From: Eledone cirrhosa
Lineage: Eukaryota
Length of the DNA stretch: 64,000 nt
Direction: 5' to 3'
Assembly: GCA_964016885.1 (NCBI GenBank)
Contig: OZ024740.1
Span: 405,294,001-405,358,000, forward strand
A program made the position numbers and the translations under genes. Below, one piece after another: positions 3,343 to 53,750 of this stretch; the stretch's first letter is position 1, and each line of letters starts with the position of its first letter. The notes under the pieces were generated by a model. It was not told the DNA's origin. It did no database searches and saw nothing but the letters and a program-made list of their open reading frames with translations.

Positions 3343-3768
3343 ATTAGTCTGCCCACTACTAATTTTCATAGAAAAAGCATATAACGATATGTGCTTTTAC
3401 GATTCTCTAGAAAGGCCGGAAGATAGGTAAATATTGCTGATGAGATGTAACAACATCGAAACTAGTCCAATATTCCTTGTCTGGCTTTCTGGAGAATAGA
3501 GGAAAGGTGTTTCCTCGAAAACCAGTATGACTCTAAAAACCGGTTTGTCTGTGTGTTTACATACAGAATAGCTGGACACTCACAGTAAAGTGTCCAGTGA
3601 AAAACTCGGTACATCTACATATGTACACGTGTGTGTATTCATATGCATACTAGTATTTCAGTATACATATGTGGATGTACATTTTTAATTTAATTGTTTA
3701 AGCGTCAGTCATACAAAAGTGAGTTACAAACGAAACGAAATTTAATTTCGTTTCGTTATTTGTTTTTA
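3343..3768 (+). mobile_element. Near-monomer (about 426 of 466 nt) of hammerhead-containing retrozyme-like repeat, family A
   Basis: Highly similar to the unit at 13961-15080; flanked by (TA)n on both sides; no ORF. Confidence 0.9.
3430..3474 (+). ncRNA. Type I hammerhead ribozyme, intact core, predicted GUC cleavage after 3467
   Basis: aatattg-CTGATGA-gatgt(aaca)acatc-GAAA-c(ta)g-TC-caatatt: all conserved core nucleotides and stems I-III are present. Confidence 0.92.
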
Positions 3769-5936: not shown

Positions 5937-7850
5937 ATACTCTTTACTCTTTTACCTGATTCAGCCATCCGGCTGAGGCCATGCTGGGGCACCGCCCTTG
6001 TTGCTACACATTTTATCTCCAGCCTGTATAGGTTGGCCACTGGTGTAGGAGGGAGTTTGTTGCTGCTGCCCTTAGGTTTCCCTCGTGTCTTGCTGTGGGC
6101 TCATCCGGGATCCTGGATAACAAGGTGTCGAGATGTTTCTTAAAGACATCCACCTCCACGTCATGCAAGTCTCTCAGATGCCCCGGCAGCCTGTTGAAGA
6201 GTTGAGGGCCCTTGAATCCCAGGCTATTGCAATACCTGCTCCTTATTCTGGATGTGGAAGACGGGACCTTTGGCACTACACAGTGACGTCCTGTTGGACG
6301 GTTGGTCCAGCTCCCAGTGCCAAAGTTTGGTGCTAGTCCCTCCAGGATTTTCCACATGTAGATCACTGCGTATCTCTCCCATCTTCGCTCCAAGGAGTAG
6401 AGGTTCAGTTCCTTTAGCCTCTCCCAGTAGCTTGTCTCCCTCATCTTGGCAATCCTCTTGGTGTAGCTTCGCTGGATTGCCTCAAGCTCCGTGGTCAGTT
6501 TGACACTATGGGGTGACCACAACTGGGAGCAGTAGTCCAGGCGGCTTAAGACAAAAGTCCTCCACAGTGTCAACATGGTGTCTCGATCTCTTGTCCGAAA
6601 AGTCCTCAAGATCCAGCCAGCGAGTCGTCTGCATGTTGTCGCCACTTTCATGATGTGTGAAGAAAAAGATGCATCATCGCTCATGTCTATGCCCAGGTCT
6701 CGTACCGATTTTGACACGGGGATATCGGTCCCTCCTGGTCCTGTGTAGCTGTGTTCCACTATATTTGTGTTTGCAGGTTTGTATTGTAGGGCTTGGAATT
6801 TGCCAGCATTAAACTGCATGTTGTTTTCTTCCGCCCATCTGTATATGGCATCCAGATCCTGCTGTAAAAGGGCAGCGTCAGCCGGGTTTTTGATTGCCTG
6901 TGCTACCTTAGTGTCATCAGCATAGCTAGTGAGGGATGTTGTTGCATGCACTACAGAGGGCATGTCCGAGAGAGCCACCAAATACAGTAGTGGTCCCAGG
7001 ACTGTCCCCTGGGGCACCCCACTTGTTATCGGTGTTTCCCTCGAGAGGGCCCCATTTGCTGCAACTGCCTGGCTTCTGTCCCTTAGGAAGCCATGCAGCC
7101 ACTCACCTACTTTTCCAGTTATGCCGAGTCCGTGTAGTTTGTGACATATCATTCCGTGGTCGACCTTGTCAAAGGCCTTCGCAAAGTCATGATATATCAC
7201 GTCCACATGTGAGCTGTCTAGTAGTTGTCTCAGTACCCAGTCGTAGTGATGTAGCAGCTGTGTAAGGCAGCTTCTTCCTGGGCGGAAGCCATGTTGCGTG
7301 CTAGTCAGGCGGTCATTTTCTTCGAGGAAAGTGATTAGTTTCTTTCTGACGACTCGCTCCATGACCTTACTGATATGCGACGTCAGGGAGACTGGCCTAT
7401 AGTTCTTGGCCTCCGCTCTACTACCTCCTTTATGGATAGGGCATATTGTGCCTTCTTTCAGCTCCCTGGGTAGTACACCGCTAGCCAAGGAGCTTCTGAA
7501 GAGCATCTTCAGTGGAGTTGCTAAGGCCCGCTTACATATTTTTAGGAGAACTGCTGGGAATCCATCAGGTCCAGCAGCCGAGTCTGTTCTCATTTCATCA
7601 ATGGTGTACACCACATCCTCCTCCGTTATGTCTATGTGGTTGATGGTTGCCATTTCTTGATGTAGTGTTATGGCATCAAAGAACTCCTCTGGCTTCATTA
7701 TTTGCATGTGCCTCAGTGAGCATGTGAAGACACTTTTGTACTGTTCGTTCAGTATTTCACATATCTCTTGGGGATTTTCGGTTAATGAACCGTCCGTGTG
7801 GAAGAGTGGCCAAATCTTGCAGTGTACTGAGGCAGTTTCTTTTGCAAATT
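5937..7850 (-). mobile_element. 5-prime-truncated CR1-group LINE; RT ORF open from ~7850 to 6013; 3-prime tail ...gtaaaagagtaaagagta
   Basis: Motifs AAGPDG, NYRPVSLTS, QHGFR, DFAKAFDKVDH, GVPQGTVLGP, YADD, RDLG, LDYCSQLWSP, LYSLERR. The N-terminal part of the ORF call is microsatellite. Confidence 0.93.
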
Positions 7851-7857
7851 TATATAC

Positions 7858-7890
<33 letters not shown>

Positions 7891-8118
7891 CATATATATA
7901 CATATATATATATGCATATATACATATATACATATATATACATATATACATTTATATACATATACATATATATATATACATATACATATATATACATATA
8001 TATATATACATATATATATATACATACATATACATATATATATATATATACACATATATATATATACATATACACATATACACATATATATATACATATA
8101 TATACATACATATATATA
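7851..8118. repeat. (TA)n array with TACATA interruptions
   Basis: Read directly. Confidence 0.95.
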
Positions 8119-9092
8119 CATCATCATCATCATCATCATCATCAACGTTTAACGTCCGTGTTCCACGCTTGCATGGGTTTGGACGGGGGTAGTCCCACTT
8201 GAGGCAAGAGTGATTGTCTTGCTCGCATAGGACTGTCTGGCAGGTTTTCTACAGTTGGATGCCCTTCCTAACACCAACCACATTTACAGTGTGGGTCTGG
8301 GAGGTTTTTACCGTGTTGCCTACACGGCCACATTACAGCGTGGACTGTGTGTTTTTAGTCGTGACACCTACACAATCTCATTTGTTTCGGCCTCGATGGC
8401 GCGGCACCAACATAACTTTACATAGAACGGGGTGGTGTGGATGGGGTGGGGGTGGTGGTGGTGGGACGGGGTGTATTTTGTTAGAGATGCCTACTGGCTG
8501 GAGTAGGTTTTACTATATATTTAGGTAAGGCGGGTCTTCTCTGTTACTGAGTACCGCCAAAGGTCTCGGTCCAGTGACATTGTCTTGGAGAGGTGTAAGT
8601 GTGTGATGTCGGAGTTTATCAGCTCGTCCCAGGTTTTTCTAGGTCTGCCTATTCCGTGACTACCGTCTATCTTTATTGCCCTGCACTTTGTTATACAGCT
8701 ATCGACTTTCATGCGCATCACGTGTCCATACCAACGTAGCCTTCTCTCGAGTAAACAACATCTGATCCCTCTTATCTCTAATTTTTCCTTAGTTCGTTTA
8801 TGCTTTGCCGTTCACGTATATTACTGTTACACATCCAGCGGAGCATGCAAGCTTCGTTCCTCTCTAGTCTGCGTATATCCTCTGCACACAATGCCCAGGT
8901 CTCACTGCCATGCAGCATTGCTGTTCGTATGCAGGCATCGTACAACCTGCCTTTCATTTTTAGTGAGAACCCTTTAGCAGCTAATAGTGGTATAAGCTCT
9001 CTGAACTTTTTCCAACCAGTTCTGACTCCAGCTACAGTACTTTCAGAGCACCCTCCCCCACTGCTGATTTTATCGCCCAGGTAACGGAAGCT
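8119..9092 (-). mobile_element. 5-prime-truncated RTE-clade LINE: RT C-terminus, 3-prime UTR and (GAT)n tail
   Basis: FRYLG...GWKKFREL...MLHGSETW...[10 protein letters not shown]...GRPRKTW; same family as 24309-27460; (cat)n at 8119-8144. Confidence 0.92.
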
Positions 9093-9826: not shown

Positions 9827-9996
9827 TTGGTATATATATATATATAGGTATATATATATATATATATATAGGTATATATATATATATATATAGGTATATA
9901 TATATATAGGTATATATATATATAGGTATATATATAGGTATATATATATATATATATATATATAGGTATATATATATAGGTATATATATACATAAT
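9093..9996. repeat. (TA)n array switching from TACATA/TACACA to TAGGTA interruptions at ~9745
   Basis: Read directly. Confidence 0.95.
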
Positions 9997-10261
9997 CGGA
10001 AAAAAATGAAACGATATTTCATTTCCCACTCTTAGTACGGCTGTTACTTAAATATAAGTATGTACACGTACATACATATATGTATACCGACGTACAGTAG
10101 TATGTATATATATATATACATACATGCACACATATATATATGCACGTATGGATTCACCGAACATTTATTATAATGCTCGGTGTGTTTGTAAACAAACATC
10201 CCGTATTAAGCCGTAGTGTCTAGCAACCACCGTTGCTCGTTTGTTCAACACTGACAAAGGA

Positions 10262-10304
10262 ACGCTGTACTAGTTTCAAGCTTGTTAGCTATTGTCAGCA
10301 ACGT
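10262..10304 (-). ncRNA. Type I hammerhead ribozyme with a G8-to-A core change (possibly impaired), GUA site
   Basis: Minus strand: acgttg-CTGACAA-t-agct(aaca)agct-t-GAAA-c(ta)g-TA-cagcgt. Stem I extends over 10243-10329. Confidence 0.8.
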
Positions 10305-10328
10305 ATACCTTCCTGCCAGATTGTTGAA

Positions 10329-10379
10329 CGTATATACTTACCTTATGCATATTAACGGCTGACTAGCCAATTTGCATAG
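10329..10379 (-). promoter_or_regulatory. Candidate snRNA-type promoter block (octamer ATGCAAAT 10370-10377, TATA-like 10331-10336)
   Basis: Aligns without gaps to the family A block at 14251-14300. Promoter function is inferred. Confidence 0.5.
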
Positions 10380-10559
10380 CGGCCGGGTGCACCGAAAACG
10401 ATAAACGGAAAAAATGAAACGATATTTCATTTCCCACTCTTAGTACGGCTGTTACTTAAATATAAGTATGTACACGTACATACATATATGTATACCGACA
10501 TACAGTAGTATGTATATATATATATACATACATGCACACATATATATATATATGTATAT

Positions 10560-10620
10560 AGGAACCAGTAAGACCCCGACAGCTGAGCTCAAGCCGTTTC
10601 GACGGCTAATTCTGGACTAA
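10560..10620 (-). mobile_element. Truncated Penelope-like pLTR end with the 3-prime half of a hammerhead
   Basis: Minus strand reads GAAA-cggct(tgagctc)agctg-TC; similar to 28218-28270. Confidence 0.55.
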
Positions 10621-10889: not shown

Positions 10890-11262
10890 GGTGTATATAT
10901 ATATATATATATATAGGTATATATATAATATATAGGTATATATAGGTATATATATATATATATATTGGTATATATAGGTATATATATATATATATATATA
11001 GGTATATATAGGTATATATAGTAATAATAAAATTGAAGACTAAAATCCAAAGAGGGCTCGATAAGGAAAATATATATCAGAACCGAAGAGCAAATATTTA
11101 TTAATATAACAGATTAAAGTTTAAGCAAAGAATCGCTGCTTTCACCTTTAACGGGAGTTTCAGAAGATCCCGTTAAGGTTGAAAGCAGCGATTCTTTGCT
11201 TAAACTTTAATCTGTTATATTAATAAATATATATATATATATATATAGGTATATATATATAT

Positions 11263-13248: not shown

Positions 13249-13542
13249 ATATAGGTGTATATATATATATATAGGTGTATATATATATATATAGGTGTAT
13301 ATATATATATATAGGTATATATACATATATAGGTATATATATATAGGTATATATATATATATATATAGGTATATATATATAAATATATATATAGGTATAT
13401 ATATATATATATGTATATATATAGGTATATATATATATATATAGATAGGTATATAAAATATATATAGGTATATAAAATATATATAGGTATATATATATAT
13501 ATATATAGGTATTTATATATATATATATATATATAGGTATAT
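10621..13542. repeat. (TA)n array with TAGGTA interruptions (A-rich start; fold-back insert at 11021-11230)
   Basis: Read directly. Confidence 0.95.
11021..11230. mobile_element. Fold-back insert (inverted repeat 11094-11230, ~63-bp arms), pLTR-like
   Basis: Arms are near-perfect reverse complements around gtttcagaaga. Each runs GAAAGCAGCG...AATAAA outward. Confidence 0.6.
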
Positions 13543-13759
13543 AAGTTAAAAATGTACATCCATATATGTATACTGAAATACTAGTATGCATATGAATACA
13601 CACACGTATACATATGTAGATGTACCAAGTCTTTCACTGGTTACTTTACTGTGAGTATCCAGCTATTCTGTATGTAAACACACAGACAAACCGGTTTTTA
13701 GAGTCATACTGGTTTTCGGGGGAACACCTTCCCTCTATTCTTCAGAAAGCCAGACAAGG

Positions 13760-13804
13760 AATATTGAACTAGTTTCGTTGTTGTTACAACTCATCAGCAA
13801 TATT
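13760..13804 (-). ncRNA. Type I hammerhead ribozyme, intact core, GUU site
   Basis: Reverse complement reads aatattg-CTGATGA-gttgt(aaca)acaac-GAAA-c(ta)g-TT-caatatt. Confidence 0.9.
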
Positions 13805-14178
13805 TACCTATCTACCGGCCTTTCTGGAGAATTGTAAAAGCACATATCGTTATATGCTTTTTCTATGAAAATTAGTAGTGGGCAGACTAATTTGCATAGA
13901 GTGTGAGTACGCACCGGTTCAGCGGAGACGATAAAAACAAATAACGAAACGAAATTAAATTTCCTCAAAAACCAGTATGACTCTAAAAACCGGTTTGTCT
14001 GTGTGTTTACATACAGAATAGCTGGATACTCACAGTAAAGTAACCAGTGAAAGACTTGTTACACCTACATATGTATACGTGTGTGTATTCATATACACAC
14101 TAGTATTTCAGTATGCATATGTAGATGTACATTTTTAACTTAATTGTTTAAGCGTCAGTCATACAAAAGTGAGTTACA

Positions 14179-14217
14179 AACGAAACGAAATTTAATTTCG
14201 TTTCGTTATTTGTTTTT
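14179..14217 (+). terminator. Hairpin followed by a T-tract; candidate terminator or processing signal of family A (recurs at ~14645 and ~3729)
   Basis: aacgaaacgaaa(tttaa)tttcgtttcgtt then atttgttttt. An equivalent hairpin plus T-run is in family B at 10409-10432 (minus). Confidence 0.45.
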
Positions 14218-14250
14218 ATCGTCTCCGCTGAACCGGTGCGTACTCAGACT

Positions 14251-14300
14251 CTATGCAAATTAGTCTACCCACTACTAATTTTCATAGAAAAAGCATATAA
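14251..14300 (+). promoter_or_regulatory. Candidate snRNA-type promoter block (octamer 14253-14260, PSE-like segment, TATA-like 14294-14300); recurs at ~14717-14766 and ~13850-13899 (minus)
   Basis: CTATGCAAATT-N14-TAATnTnCATA-N4-AAG-YATATA, with spacing identical to family B. Confidence 0.5.
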
Positions 14301-14345
14301 CGATATGTGCTTTTACAATTCTCCAGAAAGGCCGGTAGATAGGTA

Positions 14346-14390
14346 AATATTGCTGATGAGTTGTAACAACAACGAAACTAGTTCAATATT
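14346..14390 (+). ncRNA. Type I hammerhead ribozyme, intact core, GUU site; extended stem I spans 14318-14413
   Basis: aatattg-CTGATGA-gttgt(aaca)acaac-GAAA-c(ta)g-TT-caatatt; outer pairing attctccagaaag/ctttctggagaat. Confidence 0.92.
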
Positions 14391-14811
14391 CCTTGTCTGG
14401 CTTTCTGGAGAATAGAGGGAAGGTGTTCCCCCGAAAACCAGTATGACTCTAAAAACCGGTTTGTCTGTGTGTTTACATACAGAATAGCTGGGTGCTCACA
14501 GTAAAGCAACCAGTGAAAGACTTGTTACACCTACATATGTATACGTGTGTGTATTCATATACACACTAGTATTTCAGTATGCATATGTAGATGTACATTT
14601 TTAACTTAATTGTTTAAGCGTCAGTCATACAAAAGTGAGTTACAAACGAAATGAAATTTAATTTCGTTTCGTTATTTGTTTTTATCGTCTCCGCTGAACC
14701 GGTGCGTACTCAGACTCTATGCAAATTAGTCTGCCCACTACTAATTTTCATAGAAAAGGCATATAACGATATGTGCTTTTACAATTCTCCAGAAAGGCCG
14801 GTAGATAGGTA

Positions 14812-14856
14812 AATATTGCTCTTGAGTTGTAACAACAACGAAACTAGTTCAATATT
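14812..14856 (+). ncRNA. Hammerhead copy with mutated core (CTGATGA changed to CTCTTGA), probably inactive
   Basis: Otherwise identical to 14346-14390. Confidence 0.8.
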
Positions 14857-15076
14857 CCTTGTCTGGCTTTCTGGAGAATAGAGGGAAGGTGTTCCCCCGA
14901 AAACCAGTATGACTCTAAAACCGGTTTGTCTGTGTGTTTACATACAGAATAGCTGGGTGCTCACAGTAAAGCAACCAGTGAAAGACTTGTTACACCTACA
15001 TATGTATACGTGTGTGTATTCATATACACACTAGTATTTCAGTATGCATATGTAGATGTACATTTTTAACTTAATT

Positions 15077-15114
<38 letters not shown>

Positions 15115-15556: not shown

Positions 15557-15866
15557 TCGTTTCTGAATTTGTTTAGCAAGATTCTTTATCTGAAATCGTG
15601 TGTTGAATATGTAGGATAGAAGAAAGGAAAGGCACAGAAACAAAGGAAAGGAATCCCCAGTCACTGAAGAGGTCACAGAGTGTGTGACGAAAGGACTATG
15701 ACTATATATAAACAACTATCTGGTTGTGGAACCAACCAACCAACCAGAAATTTATAAGTTTGTAAATTTGTAAATTTATAAATTTATAAATATATAATAA
15801 ATTGAAGTGAAAGCAACTGGTGCGTGTGTTTCTTATTGGCAACATGACCCTCCCAAAGTATAACAA
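15557..15866 (+). mobile_element. Short HHR-bearing insert (pLTR-like or retrozyme-like, family C) in (TA)n
   Basis: Contains an HHR at 15659-15703. Its end (caacatgaccctcccaaagtataac) resembles window positions 31-55. Confidence 0.65.
15659..15703 (+). ncRNA. Minimal type I hammerhead ribozyme, CUA site
   Basis: agtca-CTGAAGA-g-gtcaca(gagtg)tgtgac-GAAA-g(ga)c-TA-tgact. Confidence 0.78.
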
Positions 15867-17416: not shown

Positions 17417-20400
17417 AAATAAATTAAAGCAAATCGAAATTGCTTTTAAATTAATCAATAAACATTTGGATAAACTACGGTGTGTTTTCTCTTCGAATGC
17501 TGTCCAGCAGCAGCAGCAACAACAACAGCAGCTACAACAGCAACAACAACAACAGCTACAACAACAACATCAACAACAGCTACAACATCAACAACAGCAA
17601 CAACGACAACAACAGTGTGAACCACTCCTTGATTCATCAACAATGGCCGATCTACTAAATGAAACTATTGACCCCCCAGTAGCCTCTGTCTCACAGCATG
17701 AAACGCCACATCCTTTCTCTGGCCCAGCAGTCCAATCATCACCACTGCCAACATCTCTGCCTACTACTACTACTACTACTACAACATTTTTGTCTACTGC
17801 TATGTCAAGGAATTTACCTTCTAATACCAGAACAAGAACTCTCCCTCCACAGTCCACAAAGGTCGTCAAATCCTACCAAACCATCATCTACACCTCTCAC
17901 AACACCACACCCACATACCCACCCACTCAAAACCCCATCATTTGCACTACTCTCTACGCTATAGAATATGTACGGATAGTGGCTGCAAATTCACCCATTT
18001 ACCTATGACAAAACGATCTATCCCCACAAATAGCCACCACCATAATACAAACTCTAATTTAACACCAACACAACACCAATAACTCAAACAAGGAATCCAC
18101 AAATCTGCCGTTTTTCCCTGCGAGACAGATTGTGTTTAGACCGGGATTGTCCCTTTACCCATCTCCCCGGGATCCGTCGGATAATGAAAATAAAATTAAA
18201 AATAAAAGCAAAAACAAAAACCATAACCTACATAAAAATAACCACTACCACAGTCACCAACAGTCTTCTAAACAGGAAACTTCTTCCTCTTTTTTAGCCA
18301 TAATGAATCTGGCAAAAGAACTGGAAAAAAACATTCGAGCTATCACCCAGCACCACCCTCCACTATCACCCCACTGCACAAACTCCCATTGCTGCATTAA
18401 CAAACAAACAAATTAACAACACACCAAAACAATTAAAACCATCCACTCTCGCCTCTACATTTTTGCTTAACGCCCAAGGCATCAGCCCTTCCACCAATAC
18501 TCAAAAATGGAAGATCAAATTCCTGAGGACTGGATTGATGTCCATCCAAACCACATCCCTTTCTTCGTCCTCACTGAAACCCATCTCAGTAACCTCCACT
18601 TGGAAGCCGAGGTGAAAGTGAAAAATTTCAAAGCCATCCGTGCTGATCGCGCTGGCAGAAGAAAGGGCGGAACTGCCATTTATGTCCATAATTCTTTCTC
18701 AACAGAGGCTATGAACATATTCACTAATGGATACTGTGAGGCAGTCACTGTATTCAGTCAAACCAACAACCTATTAGTAGTTGGGCTCTATAGGCCACCC
18801 CAAACGCCTGTACCATGCTTCAAGGAATGCCTCAACAGCATAAAGTGTTTCATCCAAGAGTGTCACCCTGACAACATCTTAATGATGGGGGACTTCAACC
18901 TCCCCGGAGTTGACTGGTCCACAAACACCCTGCCACCAGGTTCTTCTGCCTCAACCTCTGACAGGGAAGCTGTGGAATCGCTTCTTGACTTCATGGATGA
19001 TTTCTTCCTATCCCAACTAGTGCTCGAACCAACGAGGTGCCACAAAAACGTCCTAGACTTAATTTTCAGCAATCACACTGACAATATCCACAATATTGCA
19101 GTGGAGAAAACTCTACTCTCTGATCATGACATGGTTCTCTGTGATCTGAGATTCCACCGTCCAATATACAAACCCAATGTCATCTCTCCTGTCCATCCGT
19201 TTGACGCTATGGATTTCCACAATGCAAACTGGGAAGCGATCAGTCATGATCTTGCACATGTCGACTGGTCCTTCACGCACACTCATACACCCACTAACAT
19301 CAAAAAGTCCTGGCAGACATTTGTGGACACTGTTACAAACATATGTGCTAAACACACCCCATTAAGAACTATAAACAAATCTAAGAGCAGAATCCCTAGA
19401 AATAGAAAAACGCTCATCAGAAAAATTAAGAGAACGAACAAAAAAATCAACAAGCTGAAATACTGTCAGCAGCAACACATCAACTTGACTGCCATTTCAT
19501 CACTAGAGATTAAAAAACATAACCTCCAAAACAACATAATGTCCCTCATCAACAATCAGAGAAGAGCTGAAGAGGCCCGGGCCATTGAGAAGATCAAACT
19601 CAATCCCAAAGTGTTCTTTTCATTTGCAAAAAAACACAAAATCACTGGCTCTACTGTTGGCCCTCTAATTGATGAAAATGGCACTCTTCAAGACAATGCT
19701 AAAACCATGGGTGAGATACTGCAGAAACAATACTGCTCTGTTTTCAGCAATCCTGATATGGCCGATCTGGGCTGTATCGGCGATGTTACTCCCCATTACA
19801 CCTTATCGGACATAACGTTTGGCGCCCCTGATGTCTTGGCGACAATAAAGGAAATCAAGCATAATTCAGCAGTAGGTCCCGATAGGTTCCCTGCTTGTGT
19901 CTTGAAGGCGTGTCAACACCAACTTGCTTCTCCTCTTGCCAATCTGTGGCGGAACTCACTGGATGCTGGATATGTGCCAGAAAACCTTCTATCCCAGTCT
20001 GTTGTCCCAGTTTTCAAAAAGGGAAACAAATCCCTTGCCGTGAATTACCGTCCAATCTCACTCACCTCTCATATCATTAAGGTATTTGAGCGAGTGGTGA
20101 GATCGCGAATGACCCACTTCCTTGAGAGTAACAATATGCTGAACTCCAACCAGCATGGATTCCGTAATGGAAGGGATTGCCTGACGCAACTACTGCATCA
20201 CTTTGATGACATTTTGAGAGCCTTGGGAGAGGGTTCCAACACTGATGTTATCTACCTTGATTTCAGCAAGGCCTTTGACAGGGTTGATCATAACATTCTA
20301 CTGAGAAAGCTGTCCAATATTGGTGTCACTGGAAAGCTGCTGCAGTGGATCAAGAGCTTCCTGTCAAACAGAACCCAACATGTTGTAGTTGAGGGAGTCA

Positions 20401-21556
20401 AATCAAGCCCAGCCATAGTCAGTAGTGGAGTCCCACAAGGCACTGTGTTGGGCCCACTTCTCTTCATCATCTATATTAATGACATCACTGACATCATCAA
20501 ACACAGCAACATTAAAATTTGGGCCCACTTCTCTTCATCATCTATATTAATGACATCACTGACATCATCAAACACAGCAACATTAAAATTTTCGCTGATG
20601 ATTCCAAGCTCCAAAAGGTCATCAATGGCGTGGATGACCGGATAAGCCTTCAGTCAGACCTACTGGCTGTTACCCAATGGGCAGAAAAGAACAACATGTT
20701 ACTGAACGAAGACAAATTCGAACTGATCCACTTTGGAAAAGAGGATGCTCTGAAACTCCCGTATTCCCTTCCCTCCGGGGAAACTCTCGTGGCATCTAAC
20801 AACATCAGAGACTTGGGAGTAACCGTGGACAGCAACATAAGCTGGACCACGCATATAAGCAGCAAAGTTGACATGGCCCGCAGAATGTGTTCCTGGATCC
20901 TCAGAACCTTCCAGTCGAGAGATTCCCGCACCATTATCCTTCTCTTCTCTACTTTCGCCCGACCACACCTTGAATACTGTTGTCCACTGTGGTCTCCCCA
21001 CACGAAACAAAGTATCATGAAACTTGAAGCTCCTCAAAGGGCAATCACGAAAAAGATAGATGGCATGTCAGACCTTGACTACTGGGGTCGATTGGAAAAC
21101 CTGAAACTTTACTCACTCCAACGTCGCCGTGAGCGTTATATTATCTGCATGATGTGGAAAATGTTCCATCATCACTGCCCAAATGATGTTGGCATCGCCT
21201 TCAAGATACACCCAAGGCTTGGGCCCCGTGCTATCCGTCCCATTCAAAAATCTAAATCGCAACTCATAACAACAATACAGCACAATTATTTCACCTCAAT
21301 CGGCCCTGCCTCTCTTCAACATCACACCAGGACACGTCAAAACAGAAACTGACCACACAAAATTCAAGAAGTCTTTGGACAAATTCCTCCAAGTAATCCC
21401 GGACAAACCACCCACACCCGGATATGTCTCCGCAAACAGTAATTCTCTTCTCGAATGGGCCATGGAGCCCAAATCCTGAATTGAAAGACTTCGCCAGGTG
21501 GTGCTATTAAGTTAGACATGGCCTGGGCCAATACTGGCCAAAACATTTCAAAGTTA
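17417..21556 (+). mobile_element. Long CR1-group LINE: Q/T-rich ORF1-like region, APE endonuclease plus RT ORF2 (disrupted), 3-prime hairpin
   Basis: ORF 18507-20645 (LTETHL, GLYRPP, MGDFN, LDLIF, SDH, NYRPISLTS, DFSKAFD, GVPQG) continues in 20519-21352 (FADD, LEYCCPLWSP, LYSLQRRR). Confidence 0.93.
18440..21479 (+). pseudogene. CR1 ORF2 (APE-RT) broken by a 71-bp tandem duplication and further frameshifts
   Basis: gggcccacttctc starts at both 20450 and 20521; the frame changes again near 21310. Confidence 0.88.
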
Positions 21557-24308: not shown

Positions 24309-27300
24309 AAGATCTCGGTCCAGTGACATTGTCTTGGAGAGGTGTAAGTGTGAGAGGTCGGAATTTATCAATTCGTCCCAGGTTTTTCTGGGTCTGCCTA
24401 CTCCGTGGCTACCGTCTATTTTTATAGCCCTGCACTTTTTTATACAGCTGTCGTCTTTCATGCGCATCACGTGACCATACCAACGTAGTCTTCTCTTGAG
24501 TAAACAACATCTGATCCCTCTTATATCTAATTTTTCCTTAGTTCGTTTATGCTTTGCCGTTCACGTATATTACTATTACACATCCAGCGGATCATGCAAG
24601 CTTCGTTCCTCTCCAGTCTACGTATATCCTCTGCACACAATGCCCAGGTTTCACTGCCATGCAACATTGCTGTTCGTATGCAGGCATCATACAGCCTGCC
24701 TTTCATTTTTAGGGAGAACCCTTTAGCGGCTAATAGTGGTATAAGCTCTCTGAACTTTTTCCATCCAGTTCTGACTCTAGCTACTGTACTTTCAGAGCAC
24801 CCTCTCCCACTGCTGATTGTGTCACCCAGGTAACGGAAGCTGTCCACTATTTCTATAGAACCATCTGTGCAATGGAATGAGCCAGTATTCTGTGGGCACT
24901 TGCTGCTACTTATTGCACCAGAGCACCAGCCACATATAAAATCTATGTTCTTAGTTAGCTTACCTGTGATCCCACTACATCTTTTATGCACCCATACTTT
25001 GCATTTGGGACATAAAATGGAGTTTCTACCTACTCCTTTCCTACACACTGAGCATGGCCATTTTGCAGATGGGACCGGCGCCCTATTTTCCTTCCTACAA
25101 ACTAGAACTTTAGTCTTAGACAGGTTAATTTTAAGTCCTTTTGATTCTAGGCCATGCTTCCATGTTTGGAATTTCTTCTCTAGTTTGGCCATTGATTCAG
25201 CTATGAGCGTTAGATCATCTGCGTATAGGAGTTCCCATGGGCAGCCGGTCTTGAACTCCTCTGTTATAGCCTGAAGGGCAATAATAAATAGTAAGGGACT
25301 AAGAAAGGAGCCCTGATGAACACCAACTTTTACGCTAAACTCTTCACTATATTCGTTGTTAATTCTAACCTTGCTGACTGTTTCTTTATACATGGCTTGT
25401 ATAGCTCTCACAAGCCATTCATCAACACCTAGTTTTCTAAGAGCCCACCAGATAATGGAACGGGGGACTCTGTCGAAGGCTTTCTCCAAGTCGACAAAAG
25501 CTAAGTATAGGGGTTTACTTTTAGCTAGGTACTTCTCCCGTAGTTGTCGTACAATGAAAAGAGCGTCTGTGGTACTTTTACCTGACACAAACCCGAACTG
25601 CATTTCATCTAGATCAATTCTCTCTCTGATTAGTTGCGCTATTACTTTTTCTGTGACCTTCATGACCTGGTCGATTAATTTAATGCCTTTATAGTTACTC
25701 CTATCTAGGGCATCTCCTTTACCCTTGTAGCAGTTAATGATGATGCTGCTACGCCAGTCCTTCGGAACAACCCCATTCTGTAAGACTTGGTTTACTATCC
25801 GGCTGACCATGGTGTGTCCCACCGTTCCAGAAGCTTTCAACATTTCGGCAACTATTTCCGAAGGCCCAGCCGCCTTACCCGTCTTCATATCCTTGATTGC
25901 CTTACTTATTATACTACCCTCGACTAACACTGCTGGTCCCTCTATTGGGTCGATGTGGGGGAGACTGTCTTTCTCCCATTTATTCTCCTCATTTAGTAGC
26001 CTTTCATAGTGACACTTCCAAGCTACCTTCTTATCAGCGTCAGTGATGGGAAGTACACCATCATCATTAAGGACCCACTTCTCCCCGACAATATCACGGT
26101 TTTCCTTGACACATTGCCTAGCAATCCTGAACACCTCACGTTTTTGGTCCTCGCGTTGTAGAACATGCTTGAACTTTCTTTCCTCTGTTTCCCTTCTTGC
26201 GAAGTACACTTGTCTCCTAGCTTCCCTCCTGGCCACTTGATAGTCTTCTCTACTTCCCCCATCCCGCCATACTTTCCAAGCCTGCTTTTTGGCCTTAATT
26301 GACTCCTCCACCTTACTGTTCCACCACCACGTTACTCTCCTCCTGCCTATAGGCCTGCTCCAGCCACAGACATCATCTTCTGCCTTCAGCAGGTTAGCTT
26401 TCAGGAATACCCACTGTTCCTCTATATTGTACGACTCTAATTGCTCTTCCTTACTGTCAAAAGCATCAAGTAATATGCTTTTAAATTTATTACTGGCTGT
26501 GGGGTCCTTCAGCTTCCATATTTTTCTCCTGAGGATAGTCCTCCTCTGTTGTCGAGTACATCTTGTCCTGACTACGAGGGCGCTGATTATGAGTCTATGT
26601 TGGGAGGTGTATTCTTCATGGGGGAGGGATTTAGTGTTTACAACAGACACTCTATCACATCTTCTGGTAAGGATATAATCTATCTGACTGGCGTGTTCCC
26701 CTGATCTATAGGTGATCAAGTGATTGTCTCGTTTTTTGAAGTTAGTCTTACAGATAGTTAAGTTATTTGCGTCACAGAATTCCAGGATTCTGGAGCCTTC
26801 CTCATTTCTAGTACCAAACCCATAGCCTCCATGGATTCCATCATAGCCATCACAATGTTGTCCAACATGACACTTTAGGTCGCCAGCAATAATTATGTAG
26901 TCACTGTCGGTTATTTGGGAGGTAGTGAGCATCACTGTCTCATAGAATCTGTCTTTTATAATGCCAGGCAGTCCGGATTGGGGTAGGTACGCAGATATTA
27001 CTGTCACAGTAGTTCTAATTAGGACAAGTCTTATTTTAATTATTCTGTCGTTCACTCTATTTACGTCTATTATCTTATCTACCCATTTTTCTGCTAACAT
27101 GATTCCTACCCCACCCAGCCCATTGTCATTTCCCACCCAGAAAAGCTTATAGCATCGTTTTTTACCCACAATGAATCTAGCAGACCCACCCCTCCAACTG
27201 GTCTCTTGGATACAGCAAACATCAACCTCCTTACGTTCAAGCATTTCTACAACCTCGTCAGAGCGACCTTTTAAGGTGCCTACATTCATGGTACCAACTC

Positions 27301-27460
27301 TGAAGTTTTGGATTGCGTTTGGTGGGTGGGAACGGTGGGGTGCGGTGAGGGGGTTGGGGTTATGTTGGCCATCCGCGGCGAAATAAAGAGGAGTACTTGC
27401 CTTTTCGTCCAGCAGCATGAGGTGAATTTGTCTTTATCTTTGGCATTGTCATTGAGTGTC
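24309..27460 (-). mobile_element. Near full-length RTE-clade LINE whose 3-prime end is lost at the (TA)n array
   Basis: Single APE-RT ORF; C-terminal LRWYGHV and GRPRKTW motifs lie in a downstream frame. Confidence 0.95.
24527..27418 (-). CDS. RTE LINE APE endonuclease-reverse transcriptase (963 aa) with an internal PHD-like C4HC3 finger
   Basis: [69 protein letters not shown]. Confidence 0.92.
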
Positions 27461-48339: not shown

Positions 48340-51300
48340 ACTATTAGTATGAAAATAAAACAAACAAATGTGTATAGAATTAAATATAGGACATTTAAGT
48401 AGCGCAATATGCGATGACAAGGGCCAGCCAGACCTGGAACACAGAGAACAGGACACACACACACAGACGGATTTCTGTTTATTTTCCACGAGAGCACAAA
48501 AGAAAGGACACATACATGGGGGGGGGGGGGGGTTACATAAAAATTGAGTAAAAGAATGTAATAACAAATAAAATTATAACGAAAAGGTCCTCAATAGGGA
48601 GGGATCGTTTTGGGGTCACACACACACCCAGAAAAAAAAATGTGCGACCCTTCTCCACGGGAGCACAAAAAGAGGGTGCTCCCTTCTTCCTTCATCCTTT
48701 TCCGTCTACAGGTTGAGGTAGAGAGAAGGCCCATTCACACGGGCCATTCTCGCAACTTTCACCCACCTTTCATAAAACTGGCTGGGGTGGAGCACCTCTC
48801 TCTCCATCCTGATCCTTCTTCCGAAATGGTATCGGAAGAAAAGGACTAGTTGTTGGCCGGAAAGAAAGGTGTCTAACCTCAGCCCTTTTAGACGCGTCCA
48901 CCATACAACCTCTTTTACCATGGCTATTACACAGAGGAAGACCGCCTCTCCTTCATTTTTGAAGAGGGGAGGCGGCTTGATCGTTACAATGGACTCGGTG
49001 GTCAACCTGATTGGTCCCACCCGTGACAGCAGTTGTTCGACATAGCCCCACAGATCGGCAACGCTGGGGCAGTGTACCAAATAGGCTTGCCAGTTCGTCC
49101 TCCTCCATGCCTAGGGTTTCTCCGAGGGCGTTGTCGCACCTGCTAACCACCAGCCCTCTTTAGAATGATGAGGTGGAGTCTCCACCGATAGCCGGGTCCA
49201 CCTGCCAGAGAACTGTGAGCGCCTGGGCACACTCGGTGTGCCAGTCGCCCAGTTTTCTCGGTCTTTGCTTCACCCAGGACTGCAGCTCGGTGAGCGAGAC
49301 GAGCCTCGGAAAGGCTCGCCTCACAAACGGGGCCCACACTGGTTGACCGGTGAGGAATACCTGGAGGTGTCGTAGCCTCAATGCGTGTTTACGCATTTTT
49401 AGCCACGGCATCCCCAGCCCTCCTTTCAAAGGGTGTTGACAGCAGATGGATCACCTCACCAGAGAAGCCCTCTTCTTCAAAAGGAATTGGAAGAGAGCGC
49501 GCTCCATTTTGGTGAGGATCTCACCCAGGCAAGGCACGACAGTCAAGCGGTAATAGATGACGGACGCTATGTAAGTGTGCCACCTCCGCCCGACCTTTCA
49601 GGGATAGTTTGCACTCGGCCCACTTCTGGGTCAGTGCAAACACCCTATTCGTAACCTCACCCCAGTTTTTCTCCACCTGGAGGTCCGAACCAGACCCCAA
49701 GCAACTTCACCGGGCTCTCCTTCCAACGATACCGTCAGATGGCATCGGTTTGCCCCTCCACTCGCCGAGTTGCAAAGTCCCGGTTCAGCTTAGCCCCTGT
49801 CAACCTTTCGTACTCCTCTAGTAAGGTGCTGATTGCCTCGATTTCCGAGGTGGTCGACACCATTACTGTTACGTCATTGGCGTAGGCCGACACTGCTTTG
49901 CGCAATCCCAGTTCCAAAGGGATGCCCTGCAACAACTCCAACTTCCGCAGTAGTGACTCGAGAGCCAATACATACAGAAGGGAGGAGAGAGGGCACCCCT
50001 GTCGGATGGGGCGGGAGATTTCGAACGGCTCCGAGAGGTAGCCGTTCACCTTGACTCTAGAGCAGATGCGGCTGCTATGCATGGCAGTGATCCAGCCCCT
50101 GAAAACGGGTCCGAACCCAGCCGCCGCTAGCACCGCATCCAGGTAACCATGGTCCACCCTATCGAAAGATTTAGACTGATCTAAATTGATCAGGGCCCCA
50201 CCAAAGCCGGGTTCGTTCCCAAACCTCTCTATGATGTATCGCATGAGGTGGAGGTTGTCGTGGATGCATCTGGACGGGATAGCGCATGTCTACGCATCTC
50301 CCACCAGTCCCCCACGACAAGCGCCAGCCTATTCGCTAACACCTTGGCCAAAATCTTTAACTCTGCATTTAGCAGAGTTATGGGCCTAAAATTACTAATG
50401 TCATCCCCTTTGTTCTCGTCCTTCCTCACTAATGAGACTATGCCCTTGGTCACAGAACAGGGAATTCTCCCGTTCTGTTGCCAGTTGCAGTAGACTGCCT
50501 CGAGATCGGGGAACAAGTCTGGCATATTAATATATAGTTCGTAGCGCAGACCATCGAGGCCTGGAGATATGCGTTTGCCACATAGGCTTAGCACGTCCCC
50601 TATTTCAGCAACTGAGATCGGCCTCTCGCAGGACCTCGCCTCCTCGTCCGAAAGATGCGGCAGGCCGTCGAGGTATGGACCGAAATCCACATCCCCACCC
50701 CTCCCGAACAATCGGGCAAAGTGCCTTTGAAAGGCCTCGCACATTTGCTTAGGTTCAAGGATCACCCGTCCATCTTGGTCTAGCAAAGACCGGATAGTGG
50801 ATCTAATCCCACTTTTGGCTTCTGTCACGCGGGCCCAGCTAACAGCTTTGGTCCCCTCGTTTCCCAGAGCACGTATTTTGCTTCGGACAACGCAGCCTTC
50901 GTGTTTCGCATCGAATAACTGGCTCAAGGCCGTTCTCGATGCTTGCATTCTGGCCACGTTGCCGCTTCTAATTGCCTCTTCAACATTAACTACCAACTCC
51001 CTTTCCTTCCTATTTCTATCTGAAGCTAACTCCTATTGAAACTACTCTAATCTCTCTTTTCAGAGAGCCCCACCACCTGCTGTTGTCGATGGCGCCCATC
51101 AACCGTTCCTTAACTAAGGTTCTAATCCAGTCCCTGTAAGCTCTACTTGCCGGTAAGAGCAAGTTGAGCTTCCAGTAACCAGGTCCCTGCCTATGCGTTC
51201 TATCAAGGTGGACTATGCAGGTCACTAACTTGTGGTCTGAATAGCCCACCATGAGCATTTCTGGACAACTTAAAAAGTCCCTATCCTTAATTCTAACTAA

Positions 51301-53750
51301 GAACCTATCTAGGTACGATCTAGATTGGCCGCTGTGGTTTGTCCAAGTTCAGGTTGGCACAGTCGGAAAATCTAGTCGATATTTATCGGCCAGGTCAAAT
51401 CGGCCGATTAACCCCTTGAGGTTGTTACACCCCCCTCTATCGGGACATGCCCCTACATAGTCCCAACGTGCATCTAGGATACCATTCCAGTCCCCCACTA
51501 AAAGCAAGGAGCGAGACATCCGTAGAAAAGTCTCCAGACGATGGAAGAAGTCCGGCCGCATTGCCCCAAAAGGGGCGTATACGGCGACAAGCCTAAAAGC
51601 TTTGCCTTCACAACTGCCAAGGTCCAGAACCACTAGTCGACCCTCCGAGTCCAAGTGTACCGTCTCTGTAGCGAGACCCAGATGTTTTTGCAGCAGAACG
51701 ACAACCCCACCCCCACCTCCGGGCTGACAGAGAGATGCGTGCATCTCAAAGTCATCAAAGGTGGGGGCTAGCTGTCGCATGCTGCTAATCCGGGTCTCGC
51801 AAATAACCATCATATTTATACATCATGACCTGAGGTCATTTAGAAGTTTAGCTTGCTCCCAAGGTGAGCCCAGGCCATGTGCATTTAGACAACCTACTCT
51901 TAACACAGCCATGCTGGTGGTAAAGAGAGAGGCACTTACCTCTCTGCGTCCTGGGGTCCGGGCTGTTCAGTTTCCATGGGGGAGGGGGGTATTAGTGTGT
52001 GGAGGGGTTGGGGTGTTTTGAATTGTGTGGCTGTTTGAGGAGGGGAGGAGAAAACCTTTCAGGAGGACGCAGTTGTGTGGCCTGGTGCAGGGTGGCCCCA
52101 CGTCCTCAGGGTAAATGTTTTTCAATGTTTTAAAAATGTCAAGTGGGACTTCACATTTTCAGGTTAGGGAGTCCCATTGTAAAATTCGGCCCTTCGGTTT
52201 GTACCGAAGTGTTATCGTTTATTTTGTCTACTAAGATTTTATTGTTTTTGTTTATGTATGTGTAGAGTTTTTGTGTTGTTGTTTGTTTTTGTTTGTTGTT
52301 CTTGAGTGTGCTTGCGTTTTGTTGTCTGTGTTGTGTTGTCAGGTGGGGTTATTTTTGTTTGTGTGGTGTGTGTACGTTTTTTTCTTTTGACTTTTTGGAA
52401 GGGAGCCCCCTTGTCTTCCAAGGATATGAGCTCCTCTTCCGTATTGGAGGGGAGGGGTATATTACCAGGTGTTGTTTGCACTGCATGTGTTTTTTTATTT
52501 GTGTTCTGAGGGGAGGGGCTGGGTGAGACCTTTTTTGGGGTTGTTTTCTTGAGCTGTTGTTGTTGTGGTGGTGTTGGTGGTGTTATTGTTTGTGGTGTTT
52601 GTAATAATGGTTTCTTTTTTATCAGTTGAGGGCATGCAGCCCTCAGGTGACCTTTGCTTGCACAGTGGTAACACGCGGGTCGCCTACCCTCAACTGAAAT
52701 ATTTATGTAGGTCTCTCCATCTAAATGAATTCTCTGTGGGATCTTCGCTATCCTTTCTGGGCTCATCTGCACCAGAAGTTCTATGCTGGTCCCACTAAAG
52801 ACCTCTCTGGGGGGACTTTCCACCTGAGATTATAATGTCTTGGTCAAGGTCTACAATGCCACAATGTAGCCAAGTGTCTACTTTGGGTCTTATGCAGTTG
52901 AATTTTATTTTTTGAGACCTTCTTCCCATCTAAGATGGGGAAAAGGTGAAGTGGAATGTTTTTGCGCCGTTTCTTGATCCTTCATAAGCACCGAGATGCT
53001 ACTGAAGAGTTTTCCTTTTTGAATGAACAAAATGCTTTCCATTTGGTTCCTTAAAACCATCTCTATCTCACTCTGAGACGGTTGTACTGGGTTTTTTTTG
53101 TAGCATTCGAGATTGTCCTGAACACCACCGTGCTCGTGGCAATTTCTCTTTTTTATTTCTTCAGGGAAATTAATGCTGAATGAACCATCGGGTTCGAAAG
53201 TCACATACCTTTTTGCTTCTTCCAACTTTTGCTTTGCGTTGGTTAAATCCAAGGTGTTTTTTTTACAGTTTCCGCAAAGGAAATTTTGTTGTCGTTGTCT
53301 TTCTTGTTATTGTTGTTGTTGTCGCTGTTCACTTTGGTGTTCGTATTGGTATCGATAATTTTTCCGTTGCTGGTATTATTTCCAAATTTTTTCTTTTAGG
53401 TTGTTGTCTGTTGTTCCTTATTAACGTTTTTTTTTAAAGGAAGCGGGGGAAGCTGGGCACTTTGTGCTTTCATTTTTCCTCGAAGATTTTTTTTTTTTCT
53501 TTGGGGAACATGGCACCATGACTTGTATTAATGCCATCCATTACTACAAGCTGAGTTCACAAAATTGTAAGAAGAAAACTTTCACCCCAAAAAGGGGCGA
53601 AAATAATAATAACCTCAACGTCTGCAGGCCCAAACGAGGGGTTAAAGTATATCACAATAGAAAAATAAATCCCAAAACACTCTTTACAAGGTAAAACCAA
53701 TGTAAAAGACAGAGCTCATTAATACACGTCTACCTCCGTCGACAGACAGA
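48340..53750 (-). mobile_element. Full-length-sized but disrupted Tx1/L1-clade LINE: ORF1 with a CCHC knuckle (~53400-52239) and ORF2 APE-RT (51912-48706)
   Basis: CYHCASKGHLRAAC; ICET, GDWN, YSDH, GYWKLN, SPGLDG, NFRPITLLN, LDQSKSFDRVDH, IRQGCPLS, YAND, GGLGMP; multiple frameshifts. Confidence 0.9.

Follow-up and report, generated by a model that had tools for sequence, protein, structure and literature searches.

A non-LTR retrozyme family of Eledone cirrhosa with a promoter-like block resembling host snRNA promoters and Penelope-like insertion ends

The window analysed here, a stretch of 64,000 nt of the Eledone cirrhosa genome, contains on its minus strand at 9993-10557 a 5'-truncated copy, 1.36 units long, of family B, which is a non-LTR retrozyme with a type I hammerhead. 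Family B belongs to a known class, the metazoan non-LTR retrozymes, and both the class and its link to Penelope-like elements (PLEs) are already in print. A first-pass annotation had proposed an old class of selfish structured RNA; a structured RNA is supported by the predicted fold, and the class is not a new one. For family B we consider it probable that a tandem hammerhead repeat is transcribed from an snRNA-type promoter, that its RNA cuts itself into unit circles and that PLEs insert these into (TA)n. An extended version, in which the circles are self-promoting, a branched fold offers two RT starts to a PLE dimer and a hybrid U6/U1-U2 promoter reads through the U-tracts, is put forward tentatively and with some doubt.

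The window copy and its family

The insertion is embedded in (TA)n and single-armed, with its 3' end at a site termed S2 and facing (TA)n, and consists of one complete 408-nt unit and a 5'-truncated upstream part (10409-10557). All six annotated modules are present in it on the minus strand. From 5' to 3', a 21-nt U6-type upstream element (TATGCAAAT..., 10358-10378; 13.1 bits) has a 1-nt deletion, and the octamer ATGCAAAT (10370-10377) makes up the sixth module together with the TATA-like box TATATA (10331-10336), which in intact B units lies 43 nt from the element start. A long extended stem I (10243-10329; outer arms 10322-10329 and 10243-10250) encloses the hammerhead and contains the AGG-UA bulge opposite CCU (10306-10310). 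The type I hammerhead spans 10262-10304, with a core, CUGACAA at 10292-10298, that bears the annotated G8A change, and with a predicted cut at 10268/10267. Its stem I reads ACGUUG/CAGCGU, the seventh pair of stem I in family B being U.U, a U.U pair forms the base of its stem II, whose loop is AACA, and its stem III is a single pair with the palindromic CUAG (GAAA-CUAG-U); cleavage is predicted after GUA in this copy and in family B, and after GUU or GUC in family A. Further 3' lie a small hairpin (10223-10236; both sides change in 3 of 6 pairs), the 5' strand of a long-range helix, P6 (10209-10215, partner 10036-10042; both sides change in 2 of 6 pairs), a predicted UUUA-loop hairpin (10183-10198) with the next hairpin (10156-10181), and a predicted rod of alternating purines and pyrimidines, bulged on one side (10060-10149). 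Another small hairpin (10046-10059) is site S1, where insertions of other copies end, and the 'tail' between S1 and S2 (9993-10045) holds the 3' strands of P6 and of a second long-range helix, P1 (10025-10031), as well as a terminal hairpin and U-tract (about 10000-10025; second occurrence 10409-10433).

The 408-nt period of this copy results from a deletion of about 14 nt before the octamer, and the annotated unit of about 409 nt fits the window but not the family, whose main cluster lies at 418-431 nt with a median of 422 nt (53 distinct units). Similarly, loop II is AACA in the window, as annotated, but AAYA as a family state (AACA 165, AATA 103 and other 6 in 274 B/C-type matches within the fetched loci, duplicates retained). 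Judging from its sequence, the window copy is likely dead: it combines G8A and a deleted P1 5' strand with a single hammerhead, and thus by itself lacks the intact core and the tandem units of a retrozyme.

Family B does possess these features. The exact pattern of its core has 9,049 matches in the 3.0-Gb genome and 0 in the control, and the core common to families A, B and C has 40,361 against 8 for a reversed control; a DNA similarity search yielded 650 B and 727 A candidates, of which 40 each were scored. Type I hammerheads with an intact core stand in tandem arrays of up to at least 17 units, and the unit is short (422 nt), has a GC content below 50% (0.38) and has neither an LTR nor a coding region; among frames of at least 120 aa in the window, only low-complexity ones overlap the insertion. 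In the first 100 of the 9,049 matches, hammerhead positions 7-8 read CG in 97, TG in 1 and CA in 2, so that G8 is kept in 98 and replaced by A in 2. The consensus therefore carries G8, which settles a point raised in the annotation, and we infer that G8A in the window is decay, as CpG decay would produce, and not the family state. Rfam gave no match at gathering threshold anywhere in the window, and for a G8 copy hammerhead families were absent among 69 matches at E<=10; matches to miRNA families, all under the gathering score, were rejected as low-complexity rod. Two sequencing runs, presumed to be RNA, match the B rod only and have no bearing on expression, and B-like pieces occur in sequencing runs of two other organisms, which do not date the family.

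Several other repeats were observed in the window. Next to the B copy lie a small repeat with a GC-rich hairpin (10560-10618; 48 matches, 31 of 264 loci) and a small head-to-head repeat insertion (11025-11230; 73 matches, 36 loci), both often found as inverted pairs in (TA)n. More hammerhead-like cores are located at 15664 (+) and 23011 (-), one belonging to a small repeat that also occurs at loci L118 and L134 and the other matching the minimal hammerhead that one PLE family (L119, L120, L125, L131) carries in its 3' region. At loci L118, L121, L124 and L134, a very short and frequent hammerhead element is found in (TA)n, often as inverted pairs, and in the window long LINE-like ORFs lie between microsatellites at 6013-8148, 18471-21352, 24527-27433 (968 codons) and 49735-52829.

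Predicted fold shared with sister families

Families A and B are about 59% identical, with an alignment score 14.6 SD above shuffles, and are therefore homologous. When each was folded on its own as a circle, units of A, of two A variants and of B, B2 and C gave the same helix order, including two long-range helices that were absent from the annotated modules: P1, which joins the segment preceding the promoter to the tail, and P6, which closes the UUUA hairpin, the rod and the S1 hairpin. The annotated view of one architecture under differing sequence thus holds for the predicted helices of A and B, but neither C nor D retains the UUUA loop, and D and E lack the rod. The UA bulge and loop II, for which the annotation had suggested a tertiary docking contact, are kept in A, B and C and differ in sequence in D and E, where the promoter, the hammerhead and a P6-like helix are kept. 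A family A variant elsewhere in the window (3343-3768, plus strand), a 5'-truncated monomer with an S2 end, has a compensatory change in stem II.

In a sequence-only alignment (MAFFT) of 13 natural copies, both sides changed in 20 of 82 pairs; 6 of these lie in stems I-II and the other 14 beyond the hammerhead stems, where the annotation had proposed to look for covariation; the structure was derived from the same alignment and the copies represent about three deep lineages, so the count is support and not a significance test. With slid partners, at most 4 pairs changed on both sides, and 20 were reached in 6 of 500 shuffles. P1 was misaligned by MAFFT and its pairing was judged by eye. The predicted circular folds of 7 units had z-scores of -7.1 to -10.6 (25 shuffles each), that of B being -141.7 kcal/mol (z -7.1, 70% paired), which as a prediction corresponds to the stable self-paired circle of retrozymes. 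Antisense circles also folded (z -4.5 to -8.6), and the hammerhead strand was predicted to be more stable than its complement in all 7 units, with a consensus fold of -85.1 for sense vs -48.5 for antisense and -16.2 +/- 3.2 for 30 column shuffles. The independently obtained folds, the both-sided changes outside the core and the strong preference for the hammerhead strand, modelled as they are, support the selection on RNA structure that had been suggested.

In the same predicted folds, C3-U4-G5 is paired to the loop of stem III, which is an inactive form, and two co-folded hammerhead segments gave an intermolecular duplex and no clean double-hammerhead model. Axolotl ribozymes with a one-pair stem III or with U.U at the base of stem II are described as weak alone and good as dimers (PMC7229834), and since family B has the same traits, its cleavage would probably need dimers too. 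The one-pair stem III and palindromic tetraloop resemble those of HHR_Amex1, and the U.U pair resembles that of HHR_Amex2. As only one of nine predicted elements cleaved in a 2026 preprint (bioRxiv 10.64898/2026.07.22.740005), any predicted cleavage calls for caution.

Insertion ends and the promoter-like block

Insertion ends were analysed for 99 insertions with both outer ends inside 233 loci, which were chosen as best matches or as the first matches on contig 1, or were obtained as by-catch. The set comprises 53 head-to-head (two-armed), 44 single-armed and 2 complex insertions, and the 3' ends lie not at the ribozyme cut but at S1, the small hairpin past the rod, or at S2, past the terminal hairpin and U-tract. 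Where both ends of a two-armed insertion are at S1 or S2, 40 of 43 have one of each (p 1.5e-9 at 0.5; A 23/24, B 13/15, C 4/4); three insertions break this one-of-each rule, and 10 other two-armed insertions, which have an end elsewhere, were left out. The family A insertion in the window (13542-15081; minus arm 13542-13931, plus arm 13960-15081) is the sole A case with both arms ending at S1. Single arms end at S2 (27), S1 (12) or elsewhere (5), and family D likewise has two ends (7 ends). Within 12 nt of 121 of the 134 S1/S2 ends there is (TA)n, a count made in a TA-rich genome and without a background control, and any target-site duplication is unreadable in such ends.

The lengths of paired arms show no relation (rho 0.08), the longer arm being the S2 one in 19 of 36 insertions and the S1 one in 17, and their 5' starts lie within 40 nt of each other in only 6 of 36. 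In family A, the arms of one insertion are closer to each other than arms of different insertions are (median 0.8% vs 1.7%; n 23, p 6e-5); the corresponding values for B, 3.9% vs 5.2%, do not differ significantly (n 16, p 0.12). One insertion has 13 + 7 units, with arms differing by 0.02%, and others are periodic as dimers or tetramers.

According to PMC8557442 and PMC3846280, the hallmarks of PLEs include copies in tandem and inverted arrangement and a tail that only one end carries, and for a purified PLE the reported results include two RT start sites flanking the tail and both target strands nicked and extended, with a dimer predicted (PMC11167929). Family B and its sisters share with PLEs the 5' truncation, the head-to-head inversion, the one-end tail and the microsatellite or AT-rich target. 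The annotated hairpin plus U-tract is accordingly better read as a Penelope-type tail between two insertion ends than as an RNA module, and the one-of-each ends, taken together with the hallmarks and the start sites above, correspond to this tail signature and point to twin priming on one RNA. Candidate mobilisers are plentiful: the genome has 10,596 GIY-YIG candidates, stop-free RT + GIY-YIG ORFs span 844-1096 codons, a Cys-rich linker like that of Neptune/Nematis being present in most, and the 3' flanks of most inspected PLEs run into (TA)n. No terminal sequence akin to A, B or C was found in 65 GIY-YIG loci (from 150 listed of the 10,596), nested retrozymes aside. The insertion ends suggest that family B probably owes its copies to Penelope-like retrotransposons that start at two fixed sites.

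The octamer/TATA block, also annotated as an RNA module, is more convincingly a DNA promoter, since it matches the upstream element of the host U6, U6atac and MRP genes (5/5) and not that of U1/U2. Five promoters of this genome, namely those of U6atac and RNase MRP and three distinct ones of U6, have TATG(C/G)(A/T)AAT... at positions -77 to -79, and TATA comes 47-49 nt after the element start. A matrix built from four of these five promoters gave 10.7 bits for the fifth (MRP), which was scored apart, 14.8-19.2 for A/B/C units (B 14.8, window copy 13.1), 10.1-14.3 for D and 15.0 for E; host promoters ranged from 10.6 to 22.0, the background maximum among 69,158 positions was 12.9, and U1 (10 loci) and U2 (3 scored) reached at most 4.7 and 2.0. 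The element word followed by a hammerhead core has 35,192 genome matches vs 2 in the control. A role of the octamer as distal enhancer was dropped, the same word being found at -76/-77 in host U6 genes. The element is absent upstream of 14 further U6 and 5 U6atac matches, which were taken as pseudogenes; 11 of the 14 and 5 of 6 U6atac matches were judged by the upstream 130 nt alone, and U6 cluster copies with a repeat inserted upstream were counted as pseudogenes.

The host element of a type 3 Pol III promoter is thus present but the host spacing to TATA is not, being 43 nt in B/C, 44 in A/E and 46 in D vs 47-49. U1/U2 promoters have TCAGT at -56 to -58 in 8/9 cases and TCAAT in 1/9; element positions 17-20 are TCAG in B, C and D, in the corresponding register, and the 26 nt from TCAG to the TATA-like box in B/C fit the U1/U2 geometry. 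With a U1/U2 core matrix, B scores -0.2, A -6 and D 8.3-13.1, against 4.0-16.4 for true promoters. By sequence, then, the putative B promoter fully fits neither class. Pol II-like use seems somewhat the better supposition, Pol III use is possible if less expected, and a promoter-like block without function is improbable. Separately, in family D (L216-L220, L124, L128) the upstream element is repeated about three times in tandem and the U1/U2-type core is a good one, E is a further promoter-plus-hammerhead family (L214-L215), and an isolated U6-type word with a hammerhead-like core, in some cases with a T-tract nearby and without tandem units (L221-L224), may represent either old copies or short Pol III genes.

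Proposed life cycle, rivals and known systems

Under the proposed mechanism, family B would be transcribed from the snRNA-type promoter inside each unit, starting about 73-77 nt past the start of the upstream element and just 5' of the hammerhead. Transcription would pass the U-tract into the next unit, so that each unit-length RNA regains a promoter. The hammerheads would cut the RNA to unit lengths, followed by circularisation, and with the weak stem III, cleavage would depend on the pairing of two hammerheads and yield monomers together with short multimers. A Penelope-like protein acting as a dimer would then nick both (TA)n strands, one cDNA being primed at S1 and another at S2 of the same RNA, and each cDNA would circle the RNA for a variable number of units until both 5' ends are joined.

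The main rivals differ in the polymerase, in the level at which the hairpins are kept and in the origin of the inverted arm. A SINE-like Pol III repeat with a U6-type promoter would give mostly short RNAs stopping at the U-tract and rare linear multimers serving as templates. Here, only Pol III promoters share the 5' half of the element (5/5 vs none of U1/U2), A, B, C and D all have a hairpin plus T5-T8, schistosome repeats are described as apparently Pol III-transcribed (PMC6765202), and dimer and tetramer arrays suit linear multimers no less than circles. However, S2 of B lies about 7 nt past a T6 tract and arms reach at least 13 units, so the templates cross many terminators and must read through; in addition, the spacing from element to TATA is 3-5 nt short and positions 17-20 are as in U1/U2, and in flies, according to PMC1761439, the 3' half of the element decides the polymerase. 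We regard this rival as unlikely.

That the hairpins are kept at the DNA level by template switching or gene conversion, and that the arrays spread through a LINE or unequal crossing-over with no selection on a folded RNA, would account for most helices being local inverted repeats, for the folding of the antisense and for a low-complexity rod, and RTE/CR1-like ORFs do lie within the window. Strand asymmetry, two long-range helices, a catalytic core intact in 98 of 100, fixed 3' but variable 5' ends and the one-of-each rule had already disfavoured this reading, which is very improbable. That a single cDNA gives rise to the inverted arm by folding back or by endonuclease resolution, with the tail later lost at one end, is offered in PMC8557442 and PMC3846280 as the older reading of PLE tails, and fold-back likewise predicts a one-end tail and similar arms; nevertheless, in 17 of 36 insertions it is the S1 arm that is longer, and the 5' starts of arms do not coincide, which makes it a rather unlikely alternative to twin priming.

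Described metazoan non-LTR retrozymes (PMC7229834; bioRxiv 10.64898/2026.07.22.740005; PMC7761336) are, like B, tandem repeats with one type I hammerhead per unit, and according to the same sources they also share GC below 50%, no ORF, a highly self-paired predicted circle and PLEs in the genome. Unlike them, B units have a PLE-type tail and a promoter sequence of the host snRNA type, and the units here measure 420-510 nt, at or over the 150-450 bp first given for retrozymes. According to the review PMC7761336, retrozymes seemingly have neither promoters nor a motif pointing to a mobiliser, and our search of titles and opening abstracts, in a collection with few subscription papers, found no U6-like element or end-site count in a retrozyme.

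The newt satellite 2 promoter is of Pol II type, with an octamer and a PSE, and the promoter of the schistosome SM-alpha satellite is of the internal A/B-box type. In B, by comparison with newt satellite 2, the octamer-like word lies within the host U6-type proximal element, with TATA. The newt repeat is cited in PMC2220036 as having an internal snRNA-type promoter, and together with the internal promoter reported for schistosomes (PMC6765202) this gives the idea of a promoter within a retrozyme a precedent. SM-alpha has, like B, a promoter followed by a hammerhead, and its tandem copies are described as required, the promoter driving the next unit (PMC6765202); it differs in being reported as Pol III-transcribed and is not known to carry a PLE tail. 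EN+ PLEs (Neptune/Nematis-type linker; Poseidon PAc, as outlined in PMC11167929) resemble B in 5' truncation, tandem and inverted copies, a one-end tail, AT-rich targets and two RT start sites, whereas the retrozymes have no ORF and no terminal-repeat likeness to the 65 PLE loci sampled, and their tail is 55-75 nt in A/B and 35-40 nt in D vs 30-40 in EN+ PLEs.

For retrozymes, the start of transcription and the moving enzyme are open points, and family B gives a testable, sequence-based answer to both. The one-of-each rule, in short elements that encode no protein and number tens of thousands, also provides a minimal substrate for the question of how PLEs insert in tandem and inverted form. 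If true, the extended reading with self-promoting circles and twin priming would explain both the transcription and the mobilisation of animal retrozymes, and also the one-end tail of PLE insertions.
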